Shown one piece after another: positions 6,232-50,311 of a stretch of DNA of 64,000 bases. Location of the stretch: assembly GCA_010093605.1 (NCBI GenBank), contig MU004199.1, positions 930,001-994,000 on the forward strand. Direction: 5' to 3'. The notes beneath the pieces were generated by a model, which had not been told where the DNA came from, did not search any database, and was given only the letters and a program-made list of their open reading frames with translations. This stretch comes from Lophium mytilinum (taxonomy: Eukaryota). Every line of letters starts with the position of its first letter. The first letter of the stretch is position 1. The position numbers and the translations under genes are program-made.

Positions 6232-8249
6232 CTAGTGACTGGTATGGTTATGTTGAAACCGCACCCTCCTAAGAGCAGCATCATCATGACCATCTGGGCA
6301 GTCGTGCCGGTGACAATGCTGAAGGGCGGCAACATTAGTGCAAGTGGGCCGCAGATGGCAGTCTTCGGATGTCTTGCAGGCATCGCTGTGCGGGAAATTC
6401 TGTCGATTGGACACGATCAGCAGTGTGCTTGGGATGAATGACGATGTAAACATACTAGGCAGATCTTTGGCTTTTCGCAGCCGGCCATTCTGCAAGGATG
6501 GCCCGAGAGACTACATGGGCAGTAGTCTTCTAACTGGTGTTGCGTTGTATTCGGTCTCGGCGGGGACATGTCCACCGTAATCTTGTCTTGGATGCTAGTC
6601 GTTGTTCGACGTGAAGGCTTTCTACAGGAGTCCCTACCACCATCAAATGGATTAGCACACGTCACCAACCATAGGGACTTCGGGTTAGACTCACTGCCCA
6701 CTTTTGCTCTGACGAGCCCGTTTGATGCCTACGCGATTGTCTCCCTCAAAGTCGCTCTCGGTTTCATCAGCAGTATCTGCGCTTTCGTCGTCGTCAGAGG
6801 TTGAGCGCGTTACTCTATGCCTGTCCCTATCTCGTTTACGCGTAGCTGTTTTGCAGTCTACTAAGAGAGGTCAGAGTTTGCTTCGTTTGGAAAAGACCAT
6901 GAAGTGGAACTTACTCTTGTACGCTTCTCTACCACGCTGCCTAATTCCTTCCACCTCTCTGTCGGTCAGCTCACGCTGACTACAGAGAGACAAGACTCGC
7001 TCAGCAGGAGACGGCAGACCACGAGTTGAGTACGTTACGCAGTCGGTAATCGCGTCCCATTCTTCCGGATGAGACTGTTTGAGATGTTTTCCAAATCCAT
7101 TCAAACCTTTGAACTCGGTCGCCTGGTTCGCCCTGTAGTTGACGCTATTGATCCCACAACCGTTGACATTGCATCTCAATTCGACGTATTTCGTATTCGG
7201 GAGCTTGATGATGGTTGGGAACAGTCTCAACACGATATCATCCGTGGAAGTCTGCATCGTATTGATGCCACTGTTACCGTTGGTGGCATTGTAGTTAGGA
7301 GCGGTCTGATCGACAGTACTCCCCGCGATCTTACGCATGGTTAGAGCGCCAGGCAGCCCCAGTCGAAGGGCGTCGATTTCGTCAGTGGATAAACGACGTA
7401 CTATCTTACAGTGAGCAACGACTTGGTCGTCTGCAAGGGTTGGTATCTGATGAAATCGGCTAAGATGGCGTTTGAAGCCGTTCAGACTTTTGTAGTAGTC
7501 GTTCTTGCCGTGATAGTTCACACCACAAATACCGCATTGCAATTCAACCCAGCTTCCGTCATCTAGCCGGGTGACGTGGGAGTAGTCGATCAGGTACGTA
7601 GTCCCGTGTTCAGTTCTGATGCCTGTGGTATCGTCGTGCCCTATGATTTCGGATGGGTTTGGTGCTTCCAACCCGGGGTTGTCATCAGAACCATCAAAGT
7701 CATCCTCGGATCCGGGATCAGCCATCCTACGAGAGCTTGTAGGATTGACATTGCAGGCAGCTCTCGAAGGGGCAGCTTGATTAACGACAGGGAGTGTCAA
7801 CTCGGCCTGATCGCGCTGAAGAGGTGGCGTCGCAAAATTTTGCCGATGCGGGACTTGAGATTTGCGGAGTGCGCGCTCTCGCTTTTTGAGGACCTAAAAC
7901 CACAATCAAGGTTAGTGAAGAGACGGAAGGGCTCGTTCATAAAGTGACTGACAAAAATCTGTCTCCCAATGTCCTGGAAAAAGGTCAGCAATTCATACTG
8001 AACTCAACACGTCAGAGCCGGGATGAGACCCACAAGCTTCCTCTCTTCGATCTTCTCCAATTCATCCTCAAGTTCTGTATCCCGACGGATTAAGTCTGCT
8101 TCTCGTTTCTGGAGCTTCTTGAGCCTCGCAGATATCCGTTCGGTATGCCCTCGTATCTTATGCAGCGCTGTTGACTTCTGCTCGAGAGAATCACTCAATT
8201 CGGCGAGTTGGCTGCGCAATGTATCATATTGGGTAATAGGGTCTTCCAT
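6232..8249 (-). CDS. Uncharacterised coiled-coil / double zinc-module / CCCH-like protein, family copy A (~575 aa; exons 8249-8034, 7973-7953, 7893-6915, 6860-6695, 6633-6456, 6399-6232)
   Basis: Six exons joined by GT-AG introns give one open frame of 1728 nt; domains and intron positions are shared with copies B and C. Confidence 0.8.
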
Positions 8250-9286
8250 TTTGTAATAAGGAGGGTTTGAATGAAAATTGCAGGGAGATGGAGGACGGGG
8301 AAGCCAGAATCTCTAGAGTCCAAGTCCGGAGAACGGCCAGCATACCTATCTACGCGCTAGCTGTTTAGAAGTGACGTGTAACATTTAGATGAGTTACCGC
8401 TCAGCTGCATAATGGACCCATATTTCATCTGCGCCTCCCGTAGATATGCACTCACCCAGTCGCTGATCCCTAGCTGCTGCTCATGTGTCACTAGAGTCTT
8501 CAAGCCAGTGGAAGGCTGACTTCAACTACATATTGGGCTCGGGCGTCTACGCTTTCACTACCGTGGAGTGTCGGAATTCATCGGCTGGTCAGCAAGATGC
8601 CCAATTAGAAAAGGATGTACGCAGCCTCTAGACGTATCTCTTCGTTATCGTTGCGAGTAGGTATGGTGGCAGGATGGCTTTGGTTCCTAAGAAAGGGCTG
8701 ATTTGGACCAATGGGCTCGAGCTCACGGACTTCCGCCCGTGTTTCCCATTAAACCGCCTGCAGACTGACCATAGGATGCGTCTAAGGGCTGTTGGTTGTT
8801 GCCTACGTACAGCGACAGCCCGTCAGGTGTGTACCTTGTTGGCTTTCCTGTGTAACAAACGCGTTACATAGTGCAGGAAGCGGATTACGCCACCCAACTT
8901 CCACATAGGCGTTTCCAAGGACTAGACGCGATCAAGCAACAGGATCCCGGATAACCGACCACGCTTCGTGCACCGATATCTTAAAGGCAGTATCATTTAA
9001 CAGTCAAATCGCGGTCTCTAGAAGCCCATTCCAAGAGAGGAAGTTTTCTGATTGCAGGTTGCCTATAGAACCTTACCACCCCGTTGTCTCAAACAACTTG
9101 TTTCGGCACCGTGTAAGACCATCAGGATCAAACTAGCCCAAGGATTTAGAGATCCCAAACAGTTCGACAACTTGCGCGACAACGCCGCTACAACTACCCC
9201 GTATCCAACCCAATCCAGTGGGTCCAAATCTCAAGACATCTCCGCTGCACAATTCTTCCCAGTCATAGACGCCTAGAATGCGCGCG

Positions 9287-11218
9287 CTAATGCTGATTGC
9301 ATACGTGCCCACGGAAAAGTGCTTGTCGAGCCTCAATGTCATCATGGCCGTAAAAGCAATAGCCGTTATCGTAGGCCGCACAGTTTGTGCTAAAGACCAT
9401 CGACAAGCAGGTCGGGCGGGCGACGTGGTCGTGGGTAGCGCACTGGTTATCGTGTGTATCAAGCTATTGAGATGGGTAGTTAGATAGGACGTTCGGTGTT
9501 TGATTGGATTTGCGACTTACAGTGCACACCTTGATGCCCATGCAGTTGCCGCCGCATGGATGTCCAGAAATGGTGCAAGGACAGTACAACATGAACGGAT
9601 CAAATTGATCAATGTCGAAGCTTGGCATCTCGAAAGTTTGGACCTCGTCGATGTCTTGAGGGATGCTAGGATCAGGGGTCTGAACGTCCGAGCCATGCTC
9701 GGGCATGCTGCGACGAAGTCGCTTTGACTGGCGACGAGTTTGCGATGAGCCAATCATAGTGCCCGTGCTTCCATCACCCGCATCAACGGCCGCCTTGCCG
9801 TCGCCAGAGCCATTAGTTCCCATTTCCACATCCTCAGAGGGCTCCTGAGCTTTGCTGAGTTTATCAGGGTCCTCGAAGTACTTGACTATGTAATCGTTAG
9901 CCTGTGGTCACAACCAATTCTCGGGGCGAACGTCATGCATACCTTTGTACCCTTCCGCGCCTTCGACTTTGAGCCTTTCCACCTCTTCCTGCGTGAGCTT
10001 CCGATACGTGCACATCTGGATGGCCCATTCGTTCCTGGTCAGAATCGGATCCTCGAGATCCTGGTAATACTGGCTATGGGTGTTTCGGAGATGCGCAATG
10101 AAACCTTCTACGCCCTTGTAGAATCTGAGGCTGGCAGAACCATAGCAGTTCGCGCCGCATAGACAGCAGCGCAGTTCGATCATCGACCCGTCGGAGAATC
10201 TGACAATCGTTGGTAGCCCATCAACTATGCCTAGTAGCTTGACTGGCGTGTCAGCTTCCTCCACCTCCTTTGCTTCGATCTTGTCGGTAGTCTTGCTCCG
10301 AATCTTCTCGATAGCCACGGCGCCGGGAAGGCCGTGGCAAAGTGCGCGTATCTCCATGGGAGACAACTGGCGGATAGCACATAGACGGACTACCTCATCG
10401 TCGGGAGTTATGCCCTTTCCGTCTGTTTCGGAGATGTCTGCGACCTTCACGTCATGGCAGTGCGCCAAATGCTTCCTCATGCCTAGGGTGCCGTTGATAT
10501 AGCTTCCGGTTCGAACAGTCGTGATCGTGTTACCACCACATATATAACATCTCAATTCGTACCAGATGCCCTTAGCATAGACAACGATGCCGCACGCCTT
10601 GAGGTAGGCTCCATTCTGGCTGCGGGTGACGAATTGAATGTCCACGGGGAATTCGCTTTGCTTGTCACTCATTGACTTCTTACGAGTCGGCTTGTCCGGA
10701 CTAGTCGGTGGCGTGAAGCCTGCAAATCCGCCATAGTTCCCGTCCTGTTGGCGGCCATGTTGAACTATGCTGGAGCCGTACAAGGGTGTCGAGTGCACAG
10801 TCAAAGACAAATGCCGGCCCTCTCGAAGCTGCTTACGCAGTTCCTAGAAACGAAACACCGTCAGAATTGAAGCGCGAAAGACAATGACGCTGACGACAGA
10901 GCGCAAATCAGACTAGCTGTCCCATGCGTTTGCACGCCCTCATCACCCTCTAAGCCTCCCCAGACGGTGGCGTCGAAGAAGCAATAAGAGAGCCACAGAG
11001 CAGCGATCTGACCTCCATTGGAGCCACTGATCCATATGGCGCTGTGAATTGGGGCGGGTGTGACTTACGAATTCCCGCAATGACAGCTGCTCTAGCTCAT
11101 CCTCGATGAGCGATTGCTTCTGAAAAGTCTCTTGTCGCAGTGCTTCCAACTCGGCCATCTTCTCCTGCTTAATGCCAAGGACATTGGAAAGCTCCTGCTG
11201 TACCCACGTTGAATCCAT
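9287..11218 (-). CDS. Family copy B (~530 aa; exons 11218-11069, 10843-9943, 9885-9521, 9463-9287)
   Basis: Four exons give an open 1593-nt frame: coiled coil, two ELRCxxCGxN modules, CPCTISGHPC, and last exon LDTHDNQC...RPTCLSMVFSTNCAAYDNGYCFYGHDD (absent from the ORF track). Confidence 0.8.
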
Positions 11219-12208
11219 GATCGTTGTCTGAGGTCGCGAGCGACTCGTAGGCGAGGTGGTGTAGGAGTAAAGAAGGACAAGAAGCAGAAGAAGTACATAA
11301 AGGTCACCGAAAGGGTGAAGTGAACTAGCGCCACTTAGTGCAATAAGTGTGCCCGTAATGGCGTGATAAGCGAAGACGGTAGAGAGGTGAAGAATTTCAC
11401 TTGGACTGAACGGTCACCCATAGGAGGTGAAGATGAATGATCGGAAAGGAACAACTTAGCTGCCGACCTACCTATGTAGGCACGCTGGGCATGGAAAAAG
11501 TGGCACACTCAGCAAGCATCCTGCCGTCTGTGGTTGTGTGTACACCTGTCTGCCACTGCTTGGAGTGCTTCAGCAGGTTTTCACATAGCCCAAAGCGAAG
11601 GAGATTTTATCTCTTTCACAGTCTGAAAGTGCATTGAAGCACCACAAGCAGCGGCAGACAGGCGTAGAACCATGTAAGGCGGAATTGTGCTCAGCGTGGT
11701 AGGCAAATCTTCTGGAGTCATGCAAGTCATGCGGATGGAAAATTGATAGAGAATGAACGAAAGAATGAGTTTAGTTGTCCGAACTCTCACGTCCTTACGG
11801 ATCTCCCGTTCGGACTATCATATTTCACTCCACCGTCAAGCCATTAAAATACTAATATAGCTCTACCTCGAAGGAAAACAAGCGCCGTTGAGGGCGCTGA
11901 AACTGGGTATCTCGAAAAGATTGCCTTTTAATTCCTTCTCCTGTCCACGTACTTCGTTTCTATCATACCTTCATCATGAGCCGTCAAGGTTGAATAGACG
12001 CCTGCCAATGCAATATGTGAGAAATCACAACTTTTACCCCTTCTGGTTGACGAAGGGGTCCCGGTGTTGAATGCAACCGTTTCAGAGGGTCGCCGCCCTC
12101 TAAGATGCTAAGAAGTGGAAACGAGATCCTACAAACGCCGTATAAGGTGGGCTAATAGAGGTATTGAATGTTTTGAAAAGAAACCGGAAAAATGTTTTTT
12201 ATGCGGTG

Positions 12209-14191
12209 CTAGTTCTTGAGTTCCTGACCGTTAACGCCGTTGGTATGAGCAGCTGCGCCATTAATGGAGGACTTCTCATCTCCATTTACGACCCTAGTCG
12301 AATGGAGAGGCTTTGCCATGTCTTCAACTTCGAGTCCGTCGAACAGAGGGAAAATACCGTGCGGAACATGGAAATCGTTGTGGACTATGGCGACTATCAG
12401 TATATGTCGTGGAGAAGAAGGGAAAATTGCGCCAAGAACTCACCAATGTTGACAAGATACCAAGTATCCATCAAGTCCTCCACAACGTAACGGGACGGGC
12501 TAACCGAGCTGTAGCAATTTGCCCAATCTTGACCAAGTCGGAAGAACTCGTCCTTCCAGGCGAGGAAGCTGACAGTCTCGACAATGGTAGGCTGTACAAT
12601 CTCTTTCCCGGGGAATACACCCCAGGTCACAGCATTTGGTCCATCTCCAGGTGCATTCGTCTTGAGGTCACCGGCCTTGTTGACAGCGTAATACGTCATA
12701 TCGGGATCTCGCTCGATTCTGGTGATCACCTCTGCAATATACTCCGGGGAGACAAAAACCTCGAGGTAGGCCTTCTGGTAGACGTATCCATTGTGAGGGC
12801 CCCATCCAAGGACAGGATCGGAAGATTTGATGCCATCCACAGCAGGCTGGGAGTTGATGGTAAGGAAACCTCGGGTATTGAGATTGATAAGATCTGTTTG
12901 AAGACTCTCGGCTTCCTTGGAGATTGGTGCTTCGCTCCAGGGTAAACTGTCGAGTTTCCCGCTCATGTAACGGACGAAGAGATTCGCAATATCCTTGACT
13001 GAGGTGGGGCTTCCCCAGAGCTTGATGTTCTGCTCATTGGTGCCCTTGAGACCGACACCATACGCATCAAGTTCGCCAAAAGCGGGAGAACGAGCGTCAC
13101 CCCAGCGACCGTTGGGGAATTCGTCCCAGTCCTGGGTTCTGGCAACGTAGGACCTGTTCCTGTTTCGCCAGAAGATTGGGCGTACATTCTCCTCTCGGCG
13201 GTTGAGTCCGAGAGATGGTCGCCATGGTAGAGGCTTATCAATTGGGGATGACATGTCGGGCATCAAGTCCAGTTCTTCTAGCACCATACGAGTGGTTTGA
13301 GCGAGGTTCATGGTGTAAAAGTGAAGATGAAGAATGCCGGCCTCGAGAAGCCGTCGACACATCTCTGCAATGAGAGTCTTCCCGACCTCTCGTACTTGGG
13401 CGTCATCGTTCTTGATTGGCTCTAGTGCTTTGGTCCATGCTGTCGGGATGTTGCATTTTGTCCACGTCGCTCGCCTCATGAAAGCGGCATGAGTGTGAAT
13501 TGGCATGATACCGGGGATAATAGGGATGGTCACACCCCTCGCTCGAACCTTGTCGACCCAGTCGAGGAAGATGTCAACGTCATAAAACATCTGAGTGACA
13601 ATGAAGGTAGCGCCGGCATCAACCTTTTCCTTCAGATGTTCTAGGAGAAGCTCGTGGTCGTCTTGGTCTTCACATCCTTCCGAGTACCCTGCGACTCCGA
13701 TATCGAAGTGGTTGCCGTAGGTGTCCCGAATGTATTTAACAAGGTCCTTTGCGTAGCGGAAACCACCAGCTGTGGCCTCCCACTTCTCTTTCTCGCGAGG
13801 AGGGTCTCCTCGTAGGGCGAGAATGTTTGTGCAACCTGCCTTGTATGCATCCTTCAGTGCCTCGTCAATCTTTGATTTTTCCATGTCTGTACATGTAAGG
13901 TGCATGCAAGTCTCGAGTCCGTAGACAGATTGGGCGACCTTGACCATCTCGCTCGTAAGGTGTGCCATGCGGCCGCCGGCGCCCCAGGTAATGTCGATGA
14001 AGGTAGGTCCGAAGCTGTGCATGCGGTCCATACGGTCGTAGAGATTTTGAACGCCCTGGTGATTTGAGTATTTGCTCCACTGACTGGTCGAGTGCTGGAC
14101 TTACCTGAGCTGTCTTCGGCGGGAAGAACTCGAATGAGAAGGTTGACTTGTTCTTCCGCCGCGACTGCTCCAGCATCTGAGAGATATGCAT
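12209..14191 (-). CDS. MET13: Methylenetetrahydrofolate reductase, MET13 type (exons 14191-14105, 14055-12444, 12384-12209)
   Basis: [50 protein letters not shown], and regulatory-domain motifs WDEFPNGRWGD and NAVTWGVFPGKEI. Confidence 0.95.
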
Positions 14192-14287
14192 TGTGAATGG
14201 AGAGAAACTTGAATTGTAGCAATGGGTATGTGAAGGAGAGTCGCCACGCTACTGAATGTTCTTGAGCAGACGTTAGCAATGATGGAG

Positions 14288-14294
14288 TGAGTCA
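14288..14294 (-). promoter_or_regulatory. Gcn4/CpcA-type element TGACTCA upstream of MET13
   Basis: Perfect TGAGTCA on + strand, ~100 bp upstream of the MET13 ATG; a single 7-mer can occur by chance. Confidence 0.4.
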
Positions 14295-14977
14295 CCAATT
14301 GGTTTCGAACCGTGGTTGAGTATCAATTCACCGGAGTCGGTGTCGTGTCAGCTTACCACAGGACTGGTATAGGGAAGAATCGTTCGTCCGCACTCCGCCG
14401 GGGTGTTTCCACTGCTGAGGGCTGCACGGTTCCGTGTGTGTGCCAGCGCCAGCTATCCAAAGTACCGCGCACGAGCCCAACGATCAGCAAGCTGCCGATG
14501 CATGTACCGCAAACACCGGTCCGAATATCGAGCGAACAGGCGGGTCTGGGGGATATGGGGGGATATGGGGGGGTTTGTGTTGTAGTGTTGGAGTGGAGAG
14601 ATTTCGGAGTTTGAATCGGAGGTCAAAGAATGACGCCGATCGGGCCGCTAAAGACGGGAAAAGTCCTGCAAAGTGTGGGGTGCGCTGGCCCTGTCGCCCA
14701 CGTCGAATAAACATGACAGCAATCTTTGGGCGTCCAGGGACCGCTTCAGCCATCAAGACTCATTGGCTCCCATGTTCAGTGTGCCTGGAATGACCCCGCC
14801 ATTCTCGCATTCGTGAAGAGCACGTGATCAGCCGGGATGCCAAAAACAGACTCCCGAATCCTCAACATCGTCACATTCAAACACCACAATTAAACCACAC
14901 AACGCATTGAACAACAGCAACGCATTGGTACAAGATCTGCTCAGCACTGTAATTTCCAGCCCGTCTAAATAAGCATA

Positions 14978-15748
14978 ATGACAACCGCCACCACTCCCTA
15001 CCGCCGCCTCGTTGGCGTCAGCCTCAAAATGTACTACGACCTGACCTCCACCCTCCGCTATGTCCAAGGCGTGCTCGAGCTCGACGGTCTCGCCTGGAAT
15101 TACCGCGTCGACCTCTTCGTCATTCCCGATTTCGTGTCCCTCGCCGACTCCGCGCGCATTCTCGAGCCCTCCTCTATAATCCTTGGCGCACAAGACTGCT
15201 TCTGGGAAGACTCCGGCGCATACACCGGCGAAGTCTCGGCTCGCACCCTCCAGCAAGTCGGCGCGCGCATTGTCGAAATCGGCCATGCAGAGCGACGCGC
15301 AATATTCAAAGAGACGGACGCGCAGGTTGCGCTGAAGGCGGGTGCGGCGGCGCGGAATGGGTTGATTCCGCTGGTGTGTATTGGGGAGCGGACGCATGGG
15401 AATATAGCATCAGCGGCGGTGGGAGCGGCGGTCGAGGAGTGTAGGACGCAGGTTGAGGCAGTTCTAGCCGCCGTGCCAGAGGAGGCTGAGGTGATTCTGG
15501 CGTATGAGCCGGTGTGGGCAATTGGAGCGAAAGAGCCTGCGGACGCAGATCATGTTGTTAACGTAACGAAAGAGGTTAGAGCGATGGCAAAGGGCAGGAA
15601 GGGGGTTACGAGGATAGTATATGGAGGTAGTGCGGGACCGGGGACGTTTGGGAAGATAAAGGACGGCGTGGATGGTTTGTTCCTAGGGAGGTTTGCGCAT
15701 GATATTCAGAATTTGAGGAAGGTCATTGAAGAGATTGGTGAGTCGTAA
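14978..15748 (+). CDS. Atypical triosephosphate-isomerase-family protein (probably not the glycolytic TPI)
   Basis: GVSLKMY in place of GNWK, plus GAYTGEVS, EIGHAERR, AYEPVWAIG, YGGSAGPG and GLFLGRFAH; intronless. Confidence 0.88.
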   Translation: MTTATTPYRRLVGVSLKMYYDLTSTLRYVQGVLELDGLAWNYRVDLFVIPDFVSLADSARILEPSSIILGAQDCFWEDSGAYTGEVSARTLQQVGARIVEIGHAERRAIFKETDAQVALKAGAAARNGLIPLVCIGERTHGNIASAAVGAAVEECRTQVEAVLAAVPEEAEVILAYEPVWAIGAKEPADADHVVNVTKEVRAMAKGRKGVTRIVYGGSAGPGTFGKIKDGVDGLFLGRFAHDIQNLRKVIEEIGES

Positions 15749-15857
15749 TCGATATTAGTAAGTTGAAAAGTGCTTTGAATTTGACTGGCGTACGTTGTTT
15801 TCATGTGTATATGTAAGTAAGTAGGTAGGCAAGTATGTTCCAGGTTGTCTCAAATGC

Positions 15858-18800
15858 TCTCACCAATCAAACGGACCCCAACAGGAAAGTGTTCACGACA
15901 CTCTCTGCCAAGAGTTGCCAGGAAGAGAAACTCCGCAACTTCGTTCTGCCGTCGCCGAGAAAAGATATTTCCACGATCTCGAGCCCACCGCACCCTTTTA
16001 ATAGATAGCTCCACAACCACACCCCGGACCAGGAATCTGACACCGGGAGGTGATTCGCACGGTTTACTACTATTTTTAAGGGGCTTTTTAGGGGTTCGTC
16101 ACCTCAGCTCGTTGACATAGAGGGGGGTCTACAGGACTCCACACTTTTTAAGCTCTTTACAGCTGCCAAGAGTTGCCCAAAGAGGTAGTCCGCGATTTCG
16201 TTCCGCCGCCGCCGCTAGATAGATTCTCGTGGGTTTAAGCGTCCTGTACCCTTTTCAACGTATAGCTCTATAAGTAGGATAAGCCTAATTATTACCCCCC
16301 TTTTTACTATATATTACCCCCCTTTTTACTCTATATTACCCCCCCTACTTTTAACTAGCTCCGGGCCCGTATTTATATTATTCTACTAATTAAACTTACT
16401 TATTTAACTTTATAGAAGGCTGCGTAAAATAGTAAGTATATATTATAAAATAGAAAGACTATAGTATACTAGCTATTAGAAGTCTATTTACTCTATCTAT
16501 TAAAGCTAGTCTAGAAGCGGAAGGTACCTAGATAGCTACTATTTAATTACTAGCTAAAAGAAATACTAACTAGGCCTATATACTATAGCCTTATACCTAA
16601 ATATTCTCTAGTTTCTTTACTATAGGTAGCTTCTTTCTTAGGTATAGATATAGGGGTATTTTTAGGGCCTAGTTAGCTATTAGGGACTAAGAAAATTAAG
16701 CCCTAAGTAGCTATTAGAGTATCTATCTATCTAGTAGAGTAATTTAGCGCTATATTTATAAACTATATAGAATTATTTAATACCTAGATAGTCTACTTAA
16801 TCTCTAGCGTGCCTATAGAGACGCCTATTATAGTAATTTAGCTACTCTATATTCTAATCTATATTAATTAAGTTAATTTCTATCTACTTATAATACTTAC
16901 TACTTATTTTATATAAGTAGTAGCCTTTTAAGCTTACTAAAGATATAATATTCCTCTATATAATTCTAGCCCTCTACTATATTATTATACGCGCTAAGCT
17001 ATACTTACTAGATTCTATTAAGTATTATATTTAAATTAAGATAGATTATACTAAGTTATATTTATAGGTATATAAATATAGCTATAGCTATAGCTACGCG
17101 TAGTTTAATAAGATATAGTAGAGCCTATTAGCCGCCCTTTATAGCGTAGTATAATAGCTAGAGCCTTAATAAAAAGAAGAGAATCTATAGATAAATCTAT
17201 CTTATTTAGAATAGGCTACTTAAACTACTAGTACTAATAAATATCCTCTAGAATAACTATATATATAGAGGTTATAGTAGTATATAGTTTTTAGTATATT
17301 TTATAATAGTATAGTATACTATATATCCCCCTAAATATCCCGTTATATACTAGGTTAAAATTATTAGCTTTTACCTTCTTAATCTAGCTAGTAAGTAGCT
17401 TTAGGCTCTACTTAGTAACCTTCTAAAGAACCTTATTAAACTTAGAAATCTAAATACTATACTATAGAGCTCTATACTAGTAGCTAAGCTTATTCTTTAG
17501 CTCTATACTCTAGTAGTAAATATATTAAGAGAGAAGAGTAATAATATTATAGAGGTTACTAGTTAAGATCTAAAGATAGAACTTAATACTACTATTTAAG
17601 CCCTCTAGGCGTAAGATTATAGTATTTCTAAAGTATAGTAGAAAAGTAGTATAGTACTTAGTAATCTACTATTAAAAAGGCTACTACTCTTTAGTAAGGT
17701 AATTAACTAGATCTTATTTATATATATAGTTTTCTTCTATCTTCTTCTAGATAGCTTTAAACGCGAGCCTTATAGGTTTTATAAGGTAGAAATTAAACTT
17801 ATTAATAAACTTCTTTCTATTTCTCTAAATAGCTTCTATCTTAGCTACTATTAAATCTTAAGAGGTATATACTAGAGCTTATATATTAATAGTATTAGTT
17901 ACTTTCTACTTATCTACCTTCTAAATAGCTATAGTCTTACTAGTAATATTCTTTTATATGTGCTATTTATATAGAATTTAAGAAATAGTAGAAAAGAACT
18001 TAGCTAGTATATTTTTAAGTATAAGCTCTTTATCTATAATAAAAACGCCTAGTAAAACTCCTAGGCGCTAGTATATTAGGTAAAGCTATTATACTATAAA
18101 GATATAGTTCTTTTCTTCTTCTTCTAGAAGGAAATAATAGCTAAGCTTATAGTTCTTACCCTAATTATTAATACTATTAATATAGAGGAGCGGCATCTTA
18201 AAGTAATTAGTTTTATAGGTATAATTAAGAAGAATAATATCTAGATAGTATTAAAATATCTTAATACTCTAAGAATATATAAAGTATAAGTACTTAACTT
18301 AGTTTACTTTATCTAGCTTATATTTATAGTAGTAATAAGTATCTAGGTTATTACTACTATATTTCTTAAGTACCTTAAGTATAGCCTAAGTTAAAGTAAG
18401 GCTCTAGAGCTTTATTTTCTTCTACTATATATGCTTATTATAGAGGTTCTTTATAGTTATATCTTTACTTTTAGCTAAGAGGTTATTAAAGATAGCTTCT
18501 ATAGGCGTGCCTCTATTAAGCTAATTATAGATAGTTTAAATAGTTTTTTTATTAAGATCTTAATATATAGCTAGAGTTCTATTCTTAGTATTATACGCCT
18601 TATAATTATAAGCTAAAACCTTAATTTTAAAGAGCTAATTATCTTATAGTAGGTCTCTTATAAAGGCCTCTTTTATAAGGTAATTAGACTTCTTTAAATA
18701 GGTTAGGCGCTTTCTATTAGCTAGCTTATATTCTTCTATATATTTATATTAAACTATTACCTTATATATCTAGAGAGGTATATACTTATCTATTTTTTTA

Positions 18801-19290
18801 TTATATTTAATAATTATATAGCCTTTCTACTTTATCTATATATTAATAGACTTTATACCTTCCTCTATAGAGGCGTAGAGGCCCTAGAGGGGCAGCTATA
18901 GAGGTATAGTAATAAAGTAATAAAGTAGAGAAAGTAGTATTAATATATTAAGAGAGAGAATATATAGATAATTAAATTTAAATTAAGTATAAGAGGGCTA
19001 AGTAAGTAAGTTTAATTAGTAGAATAATATAAATACGGGCCCGGAGCTAGTTAAAAGTAGAGGGGGTAATATAGAGTGAAAAGGGGGGTAATATATAGTA
19101 AAAAGGGGGGTGATAGTTAGGCTCGTCCTATAAGTATGCATTACACCACAGATCTAACAATAAAGGGCACTTCCTTAGCTAGGAAGTATGATTAAGGGTA
19201 TCTTGGAGAAGTGATTGCTCTATTTTGTTGCATTAGAGGGGTTCCTACAGCGCTCTACACCTTTCAAGTCCTCTCCAGCCACTATAACCA
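15858..19290 (-). pseudogene. Decayed tandem-repeat-protein gene (~258-bp units) split by the MULE insertion
   Basis: 15905-16015 aligns with 16163-16273, and 16113-16165 with 19228-19282; minus-strand translations RRRQNEVAEFLF / RRRRNEIADYLF; several stops and frameshifts. Confidence 0.5.
16277..19128 (-). mobile_element. RIP-inactivated Mutator-like (MULE) DNA transposon, 2.85 kb
   Basis: ~125-bp terminal inverted repeats (16277-~16402 / ~19003-19128); TATAAGTA duplicated at 16269-16276 and 19129-19136; minus-strand LLNYTYKTNYFKMPLL at ~18185-18235 is a RIPed form of the MULE DxTYKTN..MPL motif. Confidence 0.9.
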
Positions 19291-32656: not shown

Positions 32657-32861
32657 TGTGATATTTCCGATCACGTGATGTAAGAATTTAGAGGACAATA
32701 GATGTCAATTCTATATAGGAATCTAGCTAGGCTATATATATATTAGAGAGGCCTATATAGGCCTTAATTATACTAGATCTATATAGAAAAGTATTTCTAT
32801 AGTAGATCTATATATTATATATATAATATCTAAATATTAACTATATATTAAGAATTTTATA
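32657..32861. repeat. 3' LTR of the outer retrotransposon
   Basis: Direct repeat of 49338-49542 differing mostly by C>T and G>A changes. Confidence 0.9.
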
Positions 32862-40100: not shown

Positions 40101-41351
40101 AACTAAAGTTATTAGGCCTATCTAGGGGTTATTCTCCGGCTCTACCGTTTATCCGCTAATAGTTAACGTTATTATTGCGCCGCTTATTATTATTAAAATA
40201 AACGGGTTCTTTAGACGTTATCTTAGCAGGTTTAGACTATTACTATTATTATTAGAGGTTGTATATGTAGGCTTATATAGCCTAGAGGCTAAGCTTAGAG
40301 TTATTAAGCTAAATCTTTAAGTCCCTAAGTTTCTTATTTATATTATTAAACTTTTTATAAAGGTTTATAGATATATATTTCTATTTCTCTAAGCCGGCAC
40401 TATAGTTATTAATATAGATATTAGTACTCTTAACTAGCACGCGTAGCAGTTTAAAGGCTTTAAGCGGCTTAGAGTTTACCTATTAATAGAACTTAAATAA
40501 GCTCTAGAATATAGTACCTTCTAGCTTTATAGTTAGGTCCTTAATATTATATAAATTTAGAAGAAGGTTAAAGGTAATAGGGCTTTTAGTATTCTAGAAG
40601 TCTACTTTAATAGTATAGAAGTTCTAGGTATTAAGCGCCTCTACTATAGCTATATTAAGTAGCTTACTAACGCACTTACGCCACTTAGTTAGACAGTTTT
40701 ATTAATTCTTTATGCGTAAGGCTAAGCGGTTAAGGTTTACTAGTAGTACTTTCTTATCCGCTTCTTTAAAGATGTCGCCCTAAGTATTATTCTATATCTT
40801 CTTAATATTCTAGTAACTAACTCCCCCCTTACCTTATAGAATGTTAGAGTTATAGGGTTACCTACCGGGCGTATTATTAAGGTGGTTAGTTATACCTAGT
40901 TATTTATAGTAAGGCCTAGGCTTTATATAGTATAGAAAATAAGAAGAGAGTATTTAAGTAAATAAGTAAGTAAGTAAGTAAGTAAGAAAAGGAAATATAT
41001 TAGTTTTAAGGTTAGTAATTAAGTAATTATATAGCTAAATCTTAAAGCTAGCAGCACCTATATAGGTGCGCGCGTATATAGCGGTATAGCTATATAAAAA
41101 GAAATTAAGGTTTCTATATTTCTAGGTTTTAAAGAATAACGCAACCTAGTATTAGGTTTATAGCTAAGAAAAGAGTTATATTTCTATTAATAAGGTTGCG
41201 TAGAGAGAAGAGAGGCTCCGGCTATAAGCCTACTACATAGTTAAGTGCGCGCCGAAAGAACCCTTAGCCCGAAGATTATGTAACATCCGTGCATGTAATA
41301 ACCCCTAACCTTAATAACTACTAAGAGAATACTAAGAAATAATATAATAAA
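34199..41351 (-). mobile_element. RIP-inactivated Ty3/Gypsy LTR retrotransposon nested inside the outer element (7.15 kb)
   Basis: 202-bp LTRs at 34199-34400 and 41150-41351; PPT complement TACCCCCCCTTT at 34401; RT LAYIDNILVF (~37240), RNase H IDASNY (~36790), integrase STAFHLEIDS*IEIAN (~35500); flanks AAAC/AAAT. Confidence 0.9.
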
Positions 41352-44300
41352 AATATTCTTAAAAGACTATTAGTTTAGTAAATATATTTAAGCTTATAAT
41401 CTAGATAGTTCTTCTCTCTACTAAGAATTCTATATAGAATGTTATTAGCAGGGTAGTAAGAAGACTTATTTATTCTAAGATAAGTTTAGCTTTACTTTTA
41501 GAGTATTTTAAAACTTAGCTAATATCTATTATAGAAGAATAGACTTTAATAGCTTATTAGAAGACTACTAGGGCTTATATTTAATAAGGTTACTATAATA
41601 TTACTAAGTTTATATCTTCTCTTTATAACTAAGAATCTCTTAAGAACCTAGCTAAAAATATAGTATACTTAGCCTTAGCTATATAGCTACTAATAGAATT
41701 AATTTAAAGAAAGACTACTATACTACTATATAATCTAGGTATTTCTTATACTTCTAAATCTCTAATAGCTTAATATTACCTATAGGGCTCTAGTAGTACT
41801 TCTACTTAGGCTTCTAGTTTAAGATCTAGCTTCTAGTAATTATCTATAGCTGTATTAAGTTTAGAAAATATAGCTACTTTAGATTCTAGCACTTAAGGTC
41901 TAAGGTAATACTCTCTAACCTCTCCTACTTAGCCTTTAACTTCTCTAACTTCTTTAATCTTTTATTATTCTTCTTTAGGTTCTTTATAGCGCTTTTAAGA
42001 GCCTACTTCTAATATACTATTAAGCCGCCGCTTATCTTAGTTATTTATTAGTAATAATAATAACTCTACTAGAGAGACCTCTTTAAACTCTACTTAGTAT
42101 TAGATAGGCTCTTTAAATACTATTCTCTAGAAGAATAGGGCTAGTAAGTATAGCTAAAATATATTAACTTAGAGCGCGCCTCTAAAATAGCCTTAGAAGA
42201 ATAATAATAGCTATTCTAGTAGTAGTAGTAGCTATAGAAGTTCTAGTAGAAGAAGTTCTAGTAGTAGAATAGCTACCTAGAAGAACTAAGAGTATATTAG
42301 CTTAGCTAGTATTAATAGAAAAGCGTTAATTTTCCCTCCCCTTCTAGATATAAGAAGGGTTAAGTATAATAGAAGTATAAGCTTAGCTTAGTTAATCTCT
42401 AATATAGATTCTTAAATTTATTATCTTTTTAATTCTCTAAAGATAAAATATAGCTAAATAAGTAATAATAAAGAATTAAACGCTTAAATCTAAATTAATA
42501 AAGGAAATCTAGGTAATAAATATATAGAGTTCTTCTAATACTCTATTAGCTTAAGATAGAAGCGCTATTTAAGCTCTCTTGCACTTTCTTCCGCGCAACT
42601 CTATATTAAGAGCTTGGGTGGGTTATATTATAGGTGCATTAAAATTACTATTTAAATCTAACTTATAATTACTACTAGTATTCTTATTATCTTTAATATC
42701 TATTATACTAGTATTACTACTAGAGAAGCTCTCTAATTATATATTAAAGCTAGTATTCTTATCTAAGAACTTATTATTTATATGCATTTTAGTATTCTTA
42801 GCTCTTAAGTTAATTCCTTTATTCTATAGCTCTGCAGCATTATTAGTTTAAATAATAGTATTACCCCTCGGCCGCATAATAATAGTATCCCTATTATACT
42901 TATTATTATCTTAGTGCGCAGTATTAGATAATTAAGTAGTAGTATTTACACTCTTAGGTATTCTATTACTATTTTAAGCTATTTTTAATAGTTCTCTATT
43001 ATTAGTATCTATAGCTAGCACTAATGCATTATTAGGTTATTCTATAGGTGCTGCGTAATTACTAGTTCCCTATAGAATATTAAGCTTATCTTAACTTATC
43101 TTTAGCTTATATATATAAACTTTCTAATAGGTATTTATAGTAGTTTTACCTGCATCTTTATATTATATAACTATAAAGCTAGTAACCTATACTAGTATAA
43201 TAGTTAATTAACCCTTCTTAGGTTTCTTTTTCTTAGTAGCCTATTAGTCTCTCTTAAGAACTCTCTCTTTAAAATCTCTTAGTATTTAATATAGCTTTAG
43301 TTTAGGCAGTTTCTAAGCATTCTTCTCCCCTTTCTAGAAGAGCTCCGCGCCCTTATACTGCTATTTTAATTAATACTTAGTAATCTTCTAATTCTATTCT
43401 ACTTTAGAAATTATAGTAAACTTAGACTATAGCTTTCTATTAGTATTATCTGCATCTAATACATCTATAATAGCATTATTACTAGGTTTAACTTCTTCTT
43501 AATATATAGTATGCTCTTTATTAGTATTATTAAAATCCTCTTAGTTTTAAAGTACTTAGTTATCTTCTAATATATTATTAGAATGTTCTAAGCTATATTT
43601 AGAGTCTTTTTAGTTCTAAAACTTTATATAAGTATTAATGCGTGTATTTACTAACCTATTACTATAAATAAGGTTCTTTAATACTTAATTAGTAGGCGTT
43701 TAAAGTATATAGATACTAAGAGAATAAGTAGTAATAATCTTAAATAGACTAAACTATTTTACTCTAAATTTCCTCTTAACCTTATTTTAAAGAAGTATCT
43801 AGAAACTAATCTTCTATTAAGTAACTAGATGCTTCTTAGATAAAGGTTATAGATTCTATAGGCCTACTATAATTACTTTCTTTAGTAGCTAATCTTCTAC
43901 TAGTGCGCGCGTGTATTAAACTTTTCTAATGCGGGCTAAATAATACTTTAATTTAGCTTTTTTATCTGCAGTCTTATTAAGAGCCGGTACTAAAGTATTA
44001 TTAGATACTTAAGGACGTCTACTATATATAAGGTAGTAGGGAGTATAGCTATAGAAGGTATTTTAAGTATGTATTATATATATTATAGCTAGTAACTAGA
44101 TATTCTATATAGCTATATCTTAATTAATTATTAGCTTTATAAGAATATTCTCTAAGACTCTATTAAGCCTCTCTATCTTACTATTTACCTAAGAGTAATA
44201 TAGCATTATAATATTATAGCAGGTCTTAATAAGCTTTTATAGTACTATAATAACTTTAGAAAGAAAGTTTAAACTATTATTAGAAGTAAACGCTACTAGA

Positions 44301-47300
44301 GAACTATACTAGTAGTAGATTCTTTTATAGATAAATATTACTATAGTCTTAGCTTAAGTATTAGAAAGCGCTGCAGCTTTAGGCTAACCTATAGTGTAAT
44401 TAATAGCAGTAATAATCTAGTAATTCCCATAGATTAATTATAGTAATCTACTAATTAAATTAATGCCCTATTTATTAAATAGATCTTAATCTTTAACCTA
44501 ATAAAATATTAGTTTATAAATAATCTTTCTTTTCTATACTAGCTAGTATAAGGTATACTTATAAGCGTATTTATTAGTATTATAACTTATTATTAGCTAC
44601 TAGCTATATACTTATAGGGCCTTCTACATGCCGTAGTATATAAAGTAGCCTAGCTAGTAGGTCCTATTAAGAATCTATTAATAATAGGAAGGTATAATAT
44701 ATAGTATAGTATTCTTAAGAGTATATAGATTTAGATTACTATTAGGTTTATAAAAGTAATAGCATAGTTCTTCTTTTAAAATTATAAAGTTTTAATATAG
44801 GGATAGATAGATTTTTTAGTAGTAAAGCTAGTATTATTTTAATTTAGCCTCTAATAGCTATTTAGAGAGAGTAGGCTTAAGGCCTATTATAAGAAACTTT
44901 TTTAAATCTTTAATATACTCTATATTAGAATCTTTATTCTTAGAGAGGGCTATAAGGCATTCTTAGATAAAATTAGAGCGCCTACTAATTGCGTCTAGTA
45001 CTATTATAAGGGCTTCTAAGTAATACTATATTATGGGGTTATACTGCTAGAAATTCTTAATCTATTAAGTAAGCCTTAGTAAGGCTTTCTTAGTGGTTTA
45101 TAGGTATTATAATAAGTAGTAATTAGTTATAATTATTAATTCTTTCTCTTAAATATAGTGTTACTAAATTCTAAGCGCTTCTTTAATTGCTAGAAGTTCT
45201 TTTTTATAAACTAGATAGTTTAATTTAGCTTTATTAAGCTTTTAACTGTTAAATATAATAGAGTACTACTTACTATCTTCTTCTTATTAAAGAAGGACTA
45301 TTCTAATAGTAAAATTAGAAGCGTCTATTTTAATTTAAAAGGGCTTTAACTAGTTAATAAGGGCGAGCACAGGGCGTTTAATAAGCTTTTACTTAAGGGA
45401 GTTAAAAGTAATTTAATAGCTAATATTCTATATAATAGCTTAGTACTTTTTTTTTTATATTATAGCGTTACTTTTCTTTAGAAGCTTATAGAGAGGTGCT
45501 AATATATAGGTAAAGTTCTTAATAAACTTTTAATAGTATATTACTAGTCTAATAAACTATTAGACCTTATAGATATTAGTAGAAATAGGCTAATACTAAA
45601 TAGTATCTAGTTTATTAGTTATTAGTTTTATAGTTCTATAAGAAACTATATAGCTATAGAACTTAATAGTTTCTTAGGTAATTAAGTACTTATTAGTTTT
45701 AGTAAATAGTTATTTCTTTCTAAGAGCTTTAAATAATAATTAGAGGTAGTTAAGATGCTCTTTTAATATTTCTAAAAATACTATAATATTATCTATATAG
45801 ATAAGCATAAATTAATATAGGTATAGTTATAAGGTATTATTTATAATAGCTTAAAAGGTAGTAGAAGCGTTATAGAGGCTAAAAGATATAACTAGAAATT
45901 TAAATTTCCCTTTAATTATATTAAAAGTAGTCTTCTAGATATCTAATTAATAAACGCGCAGCTAGTAATATCTAGAGGTTAAATTAATCTTAGTAAAGAA
46001 CCTAGCCTTCCTAAATAACTATAGGCAGTTATTAATATATAGTAGAGAGTAGGTATTCTTTTAGGTTACTAGATTAAGTGCTCTATAGTTAATATATATT
46101 TACTACTTACTATTTAGCTTTAGAATAAAAAGAACTAGAGATTTCTAGGTACTAATAGACTCTTAGATAAGGCCCTGTTCTAGTAGCTTATAGATCTATT
46201 AGGTCTATTTCTCTATTTAATAATATAAGAGGCGGTATATAGTATTATTTACCAGCTTTATATCTCTAGTATTAATTAAATAGTTATATCTATACTTAGG
46301 TAGTAGAATATTAGAAAGAATATTATAGAAATAAGGTCTATACTCTTTAAGAAGCTCTTAAAACTTCTCTTATATAGAAGTAGTAATATAATTAATTAGG
46401 GGTAATAAATTCTTATCTTCTAATAGTAGATTAGTGCCGGGTTATAGTACCTAATCTAGTATTAGTTTATTAGAAGCTTTTATAATATAAAGGTAAGTAG
46501 AATTAAGCTTATCTACTAAGAGCCTCTTATACTTTTAATAGAATATTGCATTAATAAAACCCTAGTATTCTAGTTTAGAAAGACTAAGGTCTATAATAGG
46601 GCTTAATATATTAAGCTAATAAGCTACTAGTTTAATCTTTAAGTTGCGGCTAACCTGCGTTTATAAGGTAACGGAATTAGTAAAGAAGTTAATAATAGCT
46701 TAGTATTACTATAGCTAGATTATACTAAGAATATATTAATACTCTTTAAGGTCTAGAATATATATAGTTAGAGTATCTAATAGTATATAGATCTTAAATA
46801 GAATCTCTAAGGCTTTTATACTAATTATAGTTACACCTAAGAAGAGTTTAACTACCTTAGAGGCTATTATTTTAATATTTCTTAGCTAATATTAAGTATG
46901 CTTTAATAATACGTAGATAAAATTAGCGCTATAGTTAATTAAGAAGGTAGTTCTTTTTTAATAGTTAGATAGTTCTAAAGTTCCCTTATATTCTAAAAGA
47001 TATTTACCTAGGGAGTTAAGGTAGTAGATTCTTTCTTCTATTAATTTAATAATAATTTAGTTAGAAGAATTATTAAAGGGCGGCTAATCCTTTTCTATTA
47101 TAAGTTTATAAAAAGTAGAAGTCTTATCTTTTAGATTAGTTAGTTACTTTAAGGCTACTAACCCTCCTAGTTTTCTAATAGCTTCTTAGCTAGCTAAGTA
47201 TAGTTACATTTAATATAGCCCTTCTTACTATAATTATAGTACTTATATATATTAGTATTCTATTAAGTATTACCTTTACTATATCTACTATAGCCTTAAC

Positions 47301-49337
47301 CGCGTTTTTAAGATCTAGTAGTATTTCTACCTTTAAAGGTATTAAGTTTAGTATTATCTTTAGTATTTAGATATTTATATTTATTAGAATTAATATTAGT
47401 TTCTTAGAAGTAATTATTATCTAATTCTTTATTAGCCCTAGAGATAGTATTAAGGCGGCTCTAATAGTCTCTTATTCTCTTATACTAGGAGATCTAATGC
47501 TTATTAGTAGTAGCAACCTACACTATCTATTTATTAAAATTAGAAGGGGCCTACGCTTAGGCGTTAATATAAAACTTAAGGCTAGGTTTTAAATCTACGC
47601 AGGCACGTTAATATACTTTAAGATTAAATAGAGCTATATTAAGAGAGTATATATAAGTAGCCCTAATAAGCTTATTAAAGAACTAATAAGTACTAGTTAT
47701 CTATACTATTTTATTAAAGCGGCGTTAGCGTTACTCTAGTGTATCTACGCTCTTATAGCGGCGGCTAAAGGTAGTAAAAAACTAATCTAATATAGTAAAC
47801 TTAGTATTACCTTAATAGTGCTATTAAATATCTTAGTTCTATTAAATAGCTATAGTTCTAGCTATATAGCTACCGGCTAGCTAAATCTTTTAAGTTTCTA
47901 GTATCTACTAGTAAACCTATTAATAGGCGTCTACTTATATAGTAATAAAGTTATATATTTAAACTATCTAGATAGGGTATATATTATTATTAACTTCGCC
48001 TAACTATATAGCGGGAGTTCTTATAAGAACTTTAGGTAGCGCTATTAAATAAGGTTCTCTTATAGCTAATATTCTTTTAAAGGCTTATTAAAGCTTTTAT
48101 ATAGTTTATTTTAATATAGGCTTATTATAGTCTAGTATTAAATAATCTAAGAAAGTATTAGATAATAGACCCTAGAAGTTAGTAGTACTTTAAGAAGTAG
48201 GCTACTACTAGAAGTTATCTAATATATTCTTAACACGGGTATAGTAATTAGGAACTATAGCTTATAGCTATTCTAGTATAGTAGTCTACTACTATTATAT
48301 AGAAGAAGCTAATATAGAACTAAAGAGTTCTAGTCTCTAGTAATCTATTATATACTCTATTATAGGGGCTTAGAAGTATTAATAGCTATCTAAAGAAGGT
48401 ATAAATAATAGCCCTTAATAGGTAAGCCCTAGATTATAGGCTAGGGTACTACTATAAATAATTAGAGAACCTTAAACTAGTAGCTTAATAGGTTCTAGAG
48501 TAGTAGCCTACTTAGTCTATAAGGCTAATATTAGATTAGATAGATTATAAAATATAGTACTAAACTAAGAGAGCCTTTAGAAGAGTTCTTAAAGGTTAGA
48601 AGGTAATCTATTAGAATAATAATGTCTATTACTAGATATAAAAGAAAGCTAAGGGTTATAGAATATCTAAGAATAAGAAAGAGTAGAAAAGAGTTAATAA
48701 CTATAATATAATTAAAGTAAAGAGTAAGAAAAGAGTACTAAGATAGTAATATTAAGTTTCTTTCTTAAATACTTTCTAATATTCTATTAGAGAGGGAGAA
48801 TTCTTAAAAGGACTCCTCCGCCTTTTTTTTATAATTAACTTATAAGGATTTCTAATTACTATATAATTATTAGGCTCTATTAAGCTATAATATTATTCTT
48901 CTTACTATCCTGCTATTAATCTTGCTTTAGTAGCTAATAGAACGCGTAGTTAGTTACGTAGAAGTATTAAAAGGGATAGAAAAATCCTATAGTAATATTC
49001 TAGCTAAGGGCTCTTTAGATCTATACTATTTAATTTTTATAAGAATATTTATAATAGGTAGTTATACTATAACGCCGGCCTAATACTAATTAGGGGCTAT
49101 TATTAATAGTTATTATTAATTACTAATTAGGTTAATTTTTAGAAACTATTAATACGGCTTAGTATTATTATAATAATCTAAAAATTCTACTAATTATAGA
49201 AGCTAATATCTTTTATTATTACTAAGAGTTAATTATAAGAATATAGCCTTAGCTAGCTCTATACTATTAAGTTTAAGAACCTAATAGCCCTCTAAGGAGG
49301 CCTTAAAGGCGGCTAGAACTATAACTAAGCTACTAGA

Positions 49338-49542
49338 TATAATATTTCTAATTATATAATATAAAAATTTAGAGAATAATAGATATTAATTCTATATAGA
49401 AATCTAGCTAGGCTATATATATATTAAAGAGGCCTATATAGGCCTTAATTATACTAAATCTATATAGGAAAGCGTTTCTATAGTAGATCTATATATTACA
49501 TGCACAATATTTAAATATTAACCGTATATTAAGAATTCCACA
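49338..49542. repeat. 5' LTR of the outer retrotransposon
   Basis: Matches 32657-32861; ends GAATTCCACA. Confidence 0.9.
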
Positions 49543-49608
49543 TATTTGCCCCACTCTTCTCGCTTCGCGAACTCTTTCGTGTGTGTTGTGGGATTTGCTT
49601 CCTCCTCG

Positions 49609-49657
49609 ATCACCACACTTCCATCACCACACTTCCATCACAGCACTTCCATCACCA
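49609..49657 (+). repeat. 14-bp tandem repeat (ATCACCACACTTCC, ~3.5 copies)
   Basis: Directly visible just upstream of the copy D start codon. Confidence 0.75.
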
Positions 49658-49691
49658 ACATTTAGAGGTGACAAGATCTTGGGTAGTCACC

Positions 49692-50311
49692 ATGGAGGAC
49701 GTCCCGACCGAAGAAGAACTGATCTTGATGAGGGAGCTGGCCGAGCTGTACGAGGCCAGAGAAGCCAACGCTGAGGGTTTTCGAGAGAACAAGGATCAAT
49801 TCTCGAAGGGCCACGGTACCTTTGCAGCTATACAGCAACGTTACGACAATGAAACAAGGCGTAGGCTCACTCTGGATGATGACATCGAATCAGAAATATT
49901 CGTAAGTTCTCCTTCCGCGCTACAACTTGCTTCCAGAATCTGATCTTTGGGTGTGCGAAGGAGAAGAGCAAGCGCCTTCGCGCCATCAAGGTCTCCAAAG
50001 ACCGCTCTTATTTGAGGCCATTCAACAACAAGTCTTCGCCGTTCAAGTTCAAGTCCGAGCCAGTGGACAGGGTGCAAGCGCACTCGACTGTTTCAGATGG
50101 GGTCCAGGCCTCTGTTTCCGAGCATCCGACCGAGTCACTAGCCCAGTCAACCTCTCCCGATACTTGTAGACGTGGCCTACACTCCAGCATGCAGGCTACC
50201 CCAGAGGCAGAGTGTTTCGGTAATACACCTATTCTGCGCTCTACTAGCGCTAGGAGTGGCCTTGTCAATCCAAATAGGTACCCTCCATATCTTGCGAAAT
50301 ACCCTCATGTT
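49692..50311 (+). pseudogene. Family copy D, 3'-truncated (exons 49692-49901, 49961-~50311)
   Basis: MED- start, coiled coil ending ESEIF at a phase-0 intron followed by EKSKRLR (A: QIF|VLKKRERALR; B: REF|ELRKQLR); similarity ends at YLAKYPHV, matching YLPKYPHV that opens zinc module 1 in C. Confidence 0.6.

Follow-up and report, generated by a model that had tools for sequence, protein, structure and literature searches.

BED fingers (PF02892) are recognized by the zinc ligands C-x2-C ... H-x3-5-[HC] and by an aromatic residue that precedes them, and they often derive from transposases. Here we describe a family of multi-zinc proteins with a repeated module that resembles such a finger. We studied four loci (A to D) of this family in a 64,000-nucleotide stretch of the genome of Lophium mytilinum, a wood fungus of the class Dothideomycetes and the order Mytilinidiales (GenBank assembly GCA_010093605.1, contig MU004199.1, positions 930,001–994,000 of the forward strand; hereafter the window). 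With a probability of roughly 0.6, these loci form an old, syntenic cluster of four paralogs that encode dimeric nuclear nucleic-acid-binding proteins, in a family whose named members are all from Dothideomycetes.

The predicted architecture has five parts. It would begin with an N-terminal coiled coil, probably serving as a dimerization rod, followed by a disordered linker and two zinc modules of about 85 residues each. A second linker, acidic and basic, would carry patches rich in lysine and arginine that resemble nuclear-import signals, and the protein would end in a Cys/His tail with a CCCH-like finger and a terminal H-x2-[CH]-x2-H motif. From these parts we infer zinc binding, dimerization, nuclear location, and nucleic-acid binding for the family.

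Structure and relationships of the four loci

Gene A (6232–8249, minus strand; exons 8249–8034, 7973–7953, 7893–6915, 6860–6695, 6633–6456, and 6399–6232) is intact and codes for 575 amino acids. Its spliced translation is identical to the NCBI hypothetical protein BU16DRAFT_622924 of L. mytilinum (P0001), a six-exon gene with a 21-nucleotide micro-exon (7953–7973) in the NCBI model, a feature that the original prediction lacks. The models of the other three loci were built from reading frames and GT..AG sites. Gene B (9287–11218, minus strand; exons 11218–11069, 10843–9943, 9885–9521, and 9463–9287) is also intact and codes for 530 amino acids. Locus C (28781–31331, plus strand) is a decayed copy with exons assigned by homology at 28781–28966, 29021–30317, 30406–30592, 30666–30897, and 30954–31331; the ancestral acceptor of its third exon was probably located at 30369/30370.

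Pairwise BLASTP comparisons aligned A with C (E 6e-48, 31% identity), A with B (E 3e-33, 29%), and B with C (E 7e-32, 26%) over about 380–500 columns, the greater part of the protein. These three loci are true paralogs. The original prediction, made from the DNA letters alone, had assigned one architecture to all four loci and had stated that the copies align only at motif level. The BLASTP alignments and gene models bear out the common architecture for A, B, and C and show that the second statement was too modest; D probably shares just the N-terminal part of it, with an alignment to A (z score 6.9) but no BLASTP match. The proposed intron positions and phases agree with the models: introns behind the coiled coil and behind the KxCx motif are in phase 0, the intron behind the Y-K/E that ends module 2 is in phase 1, and A and C have a phase-2 intron in the linker. 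The division into two intact copies (A and B) and two damaged ones (C and D) also stands.

The splice junctions of A and B were examined with contigs of a public sequencing run (X1, presumably RNA) that map to positions 5500–12000 of the window. These contigs skip three of the five introns of A, namely the three at the 3′ end (6400–6455, 6634–6694, and 6861–6914), and all three introns of B (9464–9520, 9886–9942, and 10844–11068). On the minus strand, each of the six skipped stretches begins with GT and ends with AG exactly at the modeled junctions, which confirms the predicted positions and phases for these six introns. The two 5′ introns of A fall outside the cover of X1 (7887–8103 uncovered). 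A single contig of 2163 nucleotides spans 9064–11565 with all three B introns removed and hence represents the whole spliced mRNA of B. A and B are working genes in L. mytilinum: intact, spliced, and transcribed. Upstream of B, one contig join at 11509–11548 skips 38 bases with CA..CT instead of GT..AG ends, and several loose contig ends lie at 11480–11666, a region of much higher contig depth.

Gene B may be missing from public annotation. Word-index protein searches with A, the family alignment, or B as query returned only P0001 and P0002 or nothing at all, and none of them found an annotated B protein; since the searches seeded with B also missed P0004, a protein with 54% identity, this result does not establish absence, and it is equally uninformative about an annotation of C.

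Each of the three alignable paralogs has its own ortholog. P0002 and P0003 from Mytilinidion resinicola correspond to A (47–56% identity) and C (57% identity over residues 1–545), respectively, and P0004 corresponds to B (54% identity). These proteins were placed in a tree of the two-module region. It contains 15 rows, namely those of 157 sequences that show a single collinear match over 185 or more profile positions. The partner of A in this tree is P0002 (support 99/98), that of C is P0003 (100/100), and that of B is P0004 (99/99); in addition, P0041 from L. mytilinum is joined with P0064 from M. resinicola (100/99). Paralogs are set apart by much longer branches than orthologs. Three M. resinicola relatives, P0017, P0003, and P0002 (KAF2805715, KAF2805717, and KAF2805723), are encoded on one contig of 1,185,738 bp and lie within nine accession numbers of each other. 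Taken together, the ortholog pairs and the shared contig indicate that the cluster predates the split of the two genera. The cluster is thus apparently old and syntenic in M. resinicola. Recent duplicates were absent from the set, as the paralogs are only 26–31% identical. Two metagenome scans for DNA around relatives of B gave 68 and 176 pattern matches, none of which was confirmed.

Locus C retains modules and a tail that are detectable by local profiles, and it carries three lesions. An in-frame TAG (29906–29908, plus strand) lies between modules 1 and 2, inside a stretch of 20 codons that is absent from the ortholog P0003. Direct reading of the sequence around this codon revealed no usable GT..AG pair by which an intron could remove it. 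Further downstream, the reading frame changes relative to P0003 at 30430–30437 (plus strand): residues 472–491 of the ortholog align to frame 1 (30370–30429) and residues 494–545 to frame 3 (30438–30593). An alternative acceptor at 30405/30406 could restore the frame. Finally, C lacks the usual stop of the family and reads 66 codons further, into an extension (31131–31331, plus strand) beyond the point at which A, B, and five relatives end with H-x2-[CH]-x2-H and a stop. In the tree, the branch leading to C is twice as long as that of its ortholog (0.29 vs 0.14). These features suggest that C either already is a pseudogene or is turning into one.

Locus D (49692–50416, plus strand) is a probable N-terminal relic. 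It consists of a coiled-coil exon (49692–49901), a putative intron of 35 nucleotides, and an open reading frame (ORF) that extends to 50416. The exon is followed by a GTAAGT donor at the family position, and the locus keeps a basic K/R stretch and the motif YLAKYPHV (YLPKYPHV in C). Likeness to the family stops after this motif near position 50311, just before the first zinc module would begin, within a frame of 229 codons; local profiles found no remnant of a module or tail nearby. BLASTP of D against A, B, and C gave no match at E ≤ 10, and the N-terminal profile of the family scored the two ORFs of D at E 6.5 and 79 among 1736 ORFs of the window. A collinear local alignment of D with the N-terminus of A, starting at residue 1, reached a score of 67, compared to a mean of 32.2 (sd 5.0) for shuffled sequences, none of which (0/500) attained this value. 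The corresponding z scores are 6.9 for A, 3.0 for P0003, 2.5 for C, 0.5 for B, and 0.3 for P0002. With this mixed statistical support, D is a probable N-terminal stump of this family. More specifically, it is probably the relic of an ortholog of P0017, since P0017 lies beyond the ortholog of C if accession order reflects gene order, just as D lies beyond C in the window, and since A is the nearest paralog of both, although the sequences of D and P0017 share no overlapping part. Directly upstream of the ATG of D, at the edge of an AT-rich block, positions 49600–49665 (plus strand) contain three to four head-to-tail copies of a word of about 17 bases resembling CACCACACTTCCATCAC.

Zinc modules, tail, and coiled coil

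The pair of zinc modules maps to 6916–7611 (minus strand) in A, where extended, BED-like C2H2 modules are assigned from Pfam zf-BED, the AlphaFold2 model, and conserved ligands, and to 9944–10624 (minus strand) in B, where a local profile matches with E 1.2e-104. Each module comprises about 85 residues, made up of a C2H2 finger (CxxC...Hx3-4H) and a conserved helix-strand-helix extension (C-x2-R-x-L-S/T...G-x-P-G-A). The motif W/Y-x-E-L-x-C occurs in all six modules of A, B, and C; module 2 of A has C-x4-C. In an alignment of 46 sequences the zinc ligands C26, C29, H49, H54, C147, C152, and H176 are near-invariant, and in 150 aligned sequences the near-invariant positions are C, C, N, G, H, and H. 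Pfam zf-BED matches module 1 of A with 21.6–22.1 bits (gathering cutoff 20.6) and B with 19.3 bits, which is below this cutoff; no match was returned for C.

A profile built on the paired modules of A, B, and C was searched against 1.84 billion cluster representatives. At E ≤ 0.001 this search matched 335 proteins, of which 105 reached E ≤ 1e-10 and 8 reached E ≤ 1e-30, with one to four module copies per protein among the matching representatives. Among 30 representatives that were looked up, 14 have an organism name, and all 14 belong to Dothideomycetes (P0006 was named via another cluster member), from the orders Mytilinidiales, Gloniales, Cladosporiales, Mycosphaerellales, Lineolatales, Microthyriales, and Venturiales. 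The commonest Pfam match among the relatives at E ≤ 0.01 is zf-BED, with 9 of 58 proteins in one set (2 above the cutoff) and 11 of 90 in another (best E 3.8e-8), or 20 of 148 in total. The module is accompanied by a Chromo domain in P0019 from L. mytilinum (E 4.6e-8), by an NSD-type PHD finger in P0055 (23.4 bits, just below the cutoff of 23.9), and by a Gal4-type Zn2Cys6 cluster at the N-terminus of P0147. These predicted partners are the company of DNA and chromatin proteins. Other contigs of L. mytilinum encode module-bearing proteins without the tail (P0019, P0015, and P0041); one of the three, a protein of 1468 amino acids, has three to four module matches plus a Chromo domain at its C-terminus.

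The AlphaFold2 model of the two-module region, computed from the 46-row alignment, has a mean predicted local distance difference test score (pLDDT) of 86.9. In the model, each module runs from a β-hairpin through two helices and a strand to a final helix, and residues 101–120 form a disordered linker between the two modules. Neither Foldseek nor an exhaustive VIA search returned a solved BED structure for the query, which was the whole two-module model rather than a single module. Searches of PDB sequences with the module and tail profiles returned chance-level rows only (metacaspase, E 0.34; eL14, E 0.81). We found no dedicated Pfam family for the module or the full architecture, no solved relative, and, in text searches of listings and the opening lines of abstracts, no paper on the family. 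These results agree with the original description of a local family of multi-zinc proteins with an unrecognized architecture. In our reading, the module is a divergent BED-like C2H2 finger with an extension, for which we found no separate family entry.

The tail pattern is common to A, B, C, and five relatives. It begins with C-P-C-x3-G-H-x-C-x4-5-C-x5-C, continues with H-x3-C and C-x8-C-x4-6-C-x3-H-D, and closes with H-x2-[CH]-x2-H and a stop, which is missing in C. Hence, it combines six conserved cysteines and one histidine with a CCCH-like finger and the terminal motif. The CCCH spacing C-x7-8-C-x4-6-C-x3-H is found in A as C-x8-C-x4-C-x3-H and in B and C as C-x8-C-x6-C-x3-H; the relatives P0008, P0038, and P0136 have x8-x4-x3. 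UniRef names the M. resinicola paralog P0017 a "C3H1-type domain-containing protein", and the nearest named clusters among the language-model neighbors of the tail are all zf-CCCH families, although the best score of 0.82 is a lead only. In the first part of the tail the spacing is C-x-C-x6-C-x4-5-C-x5-C rather than the C-x2-C-x6-C-x5-12-C-x2-C-x6-8-C of Gal4-type Zn2Cys6 clusters (PF00172), a pattern that was seen only in the unrelated N-terminus of P0147. Foldseek returned no match for the tail model at E ≤ 10.

Among the 150 best cluster representatives, 10 further proteins contain the first motif of the tail together with the modules, which shows that the full architecture extends beyond the L. 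mytilinum locus. Five annotated relatives (P0002, P0010, P0031, P0086, and P0131) stop at the conserved phase-0 intron behind KxCx or a few residues past it, and in three cases the sequence at this point is ...C-[LV]-V-S. This observation suggests that their gene models read into the intron and thereby lose the CCCH-like end.

For the coiled coil, we modeled two copies of residues 1–100 of A as a pair. The pair scored 0.32, and the best of three controls scored 0.00. In calibration, 21 of 30 proteins whose solved structure is a pair of one chain reached the mark for pairing, against none of 23 solved as single chains; for eukaryotic proteins the numbers are 17 of 29 and 0 of 30, with 1 of 7 among those that lack an older solved relative. 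At least 98% of the contacts agree between runs, and the partner has a pLDDT of 83 or higher. Contacts recur with a spacing of 3–4 residues, and residue i pairs with residue ~86–93 minus i, a pattern that indicates an antiparallel coiled coil. The model therefore supports the prediction that the N-terminal region of A pairs with itself.

Proposed role, genomic neighborhood, and alternatives

Assembled in this order, the parts would form a dimeric nuclear protein that binds DNA via its fingers and perhaps RNA via its CCCH-like tail, and that may act as a regulator of genes or chromatin. A nuclear nucleic-acid-binding role, which had been proposed before, remains a reasonable inference. Several observations weigh against it. 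The link between the module and DNA is a prediction, and the nuclear localization is based on basic patches picked by eye. The zf-BED match is marginal for A, sub-threshold for B, and absent for C. Foldseek comparison of the two-module model with PDB gave no match at E ≤ 0.001, and the exhaustive VIA search yielded 16 chains with Z ≥ 2, the best at only Z 3.0. The C2H2 fingers in that list are those of Kaiso (5vmu_A; Z 2.8, root-mean-square deviation (rmsd) 3.1, 50 aligned), AFV1p06 (2lvh; Z 2.4, rmsd 3.0, 44 aligned), Serrate (3ax1_A; Z 2.2, rmsd 4.5, 44 aligned), and Ars2 (7qy5_D; Z 2.2, rmsd 4.0, 50 aligned). The tail model is poor (mean pLDDT 62.6), and at E ≤ 10 neither the tail exons of A, B, and C nor five full-length tail-bearing relatives match a CCCH or Zn_clus family of Pfam. 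The dimer score of A barely reaches the mark, and the synteny with M. resinicola is read from accession order rather than from DNA.

The family could instead be chiefly RNA-binding. In this case the CCCH-like tail would be the working part of a protein for post-transcriptional control, and the C2H2 modules would make contacts to protein or RNA. The near-CCCH spacing of the tail end (C-x8-C-x4-6-C-x3-H), the C3H1-type label of P0017, the zf-CCCH families among the language-model neighbors, and the presence of Serrate and Ars2 fingers among the weak structural neighbors of module 2 are consistent with this idea. Nevertheless, we consider it unlikely. None of the eight tail sequences matches Pfam CCCH, and the tail was found in only 10 further proteins of the 150 best module-bearing representatives, which implies that the module works without it. 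Moreover, the partners of the module elsewhere are Chromo, PHD, and Zn2Cys6 domains.

The surroundings of the four loci bear on a different explanation. A and B are bracketed by housekeeping genes identified by Pfam scan: a gene for HPPK/DHPS (3237–5359) and one for MTHFR (12400–14100) flank the pair, and the latter is followed by the gene for triosephosphate isomerase (14972–15745). The occurrence of folate-pathway genes on both sides of the pair is probably a coincidence. An iron alcohol dehydrogenase gene precedes C. Between C and D lies an AT-rich block (32700–49500) with a G+C content of 0.27, a TpA/ApT ratio of 1.74, and a (CpA+TpG)/(ApC+GpT) ratio of 0.16, values that resemble the outcome of repeat-induced point mutation (RIP). 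A second RIP-like, AT-rich block is located at 16200–19200 (1.75 and 0.27 for the same two ratios). Local profiles detected no family remnant inside either block, and the dinucleotide indices reveal no RIP signature in the bodies of the four loci. A HET-domain gene (52501–54285, minus strand; Pfam HET, E 2.5e-27) is located beyond D. Next to it, the ORF at 51123–51617 (minus strand) reads ...WCLQERELSPR..., as is usual toward the C-terminal end of HET domains; this ORF has no Pfam match at E ≤ 0.001 and is possibly a HET fragment.

The original prediction had placed the family beside HET genes and transposons, had inferred fast birth and death, and had seen in this a pattern typical of genetic conflict, with genes of fast turnover for genome defense, allorecognition, or meiotic drive, although it claimed no demonstrated function. 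The setting is correct for C and D, which adjoin the RIP-mutated 17-kb block and the HET gene, but not for A and B, which lie among genes of the folate pathway and glycolysis. Decay of two of the four copies, ortholog identities of only 47–57% between two genera of one family, and the occurrence of the module in 335 clusters with variable copy number per protein would also suit a conflict family. On the other hand, the low ortholog identity is found mostly in the disordered linkers, the gene bodies are free of a RIP signature, and Pfam finds no NACHT, HET, nuclease, or toxin domain in any copy. Fast birth and death is not supported, given the orthologs that A, B, and C each possess (support of at least 99/98), the apparently syntenic cluster in M. 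resinicola, and the lack of recent duplicates among paralogs of 26–31% identity. None of the tests points specifically to conflict, and we regard this explanation as improbable. Proximity to a HET gene and repeats, together with copies that are half decayed, does not make a conflict family when the copies have orthologs in a sister genus.

It is equally doubtful that the modules are a domesticated transposase DNA-binding domain, derived from a hAT-type BED finger and now serving the host or recognizing transposon ends, because zf-BED, although the only recurrent Pfam match, has marginal scores and no transposase, RNase H-like, or hAT dimerization domain appears in Pfam scans of the 150 best representatives.

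We therefore retain the reading of an old cluster that encodes dimeric nuclear nucleic-acid binders. In a bolder extension of this reading, the module would be a new domain family that radiated in Dothideomycetes, and its combination with an antiparallel coiled coil and a Cys6/CCCH tail would yield a dimer that reads both DNA and RNA. We consider this a long shot. If true, such a dimer could couple a chromatin mark or DNA site to the fate of a transcript in genome defense near RIP-mutated repeats.

Comparison with known zinc fingers

The family is built from recognizable kinds of parts and is widespread in one fungal class. The analysis defines a previously unnamed zinc-finger module, present in 335 protein clusters with all 14 named examples from seven orders of Dothideomycetes, and a recurring full architecture that has neither a Pfam entry nor a solved structure. 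Both should be useful for annotating genomes of Dothideomycetes, many of which are plant pathogens, and they provide a target for a first structure and binding study.

The nearest named clusters of the module in the ESM Atlas are the fungal zinc-finger domains Rua1_C (PF14616), zf-C2H2_AHC1 (PF25909), and OrsD (PF12013), with scores of 0.77–0.80. All feature scores in this comparison are at most 0.85, below the level at which chance matches are rare, and all TM-scores are below 0.5, so that these neighbors are leads only. The relative P0012 does match Rua1_C (29.6 bits, cutoff 27), but Pfam scans of A, B, and C gave no match to any of the three domains. The last finger of the tail shares the spacing C-x8-C-x4-6-C-x3-H with CCCH fingers (C3H1, PF00642 and relatives), from which it differs in that it sits in a larger Cys6-His cluster (CPCxxxGHxC-x4-5-C-x5-C) without a named counterpart. 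The module itself resembles the BED finger in its ligands (C-x2-C...H-x3-5-H), in the aromatic residue before the first cysteine (W-x-E-L-x-C), and in its predicted core of a β-hairpin plus helix. In contrast to the BED finger, it forms a unit of about 85 residues with a conserved additional helix-strand-helix, and it was seen in no transposase context.

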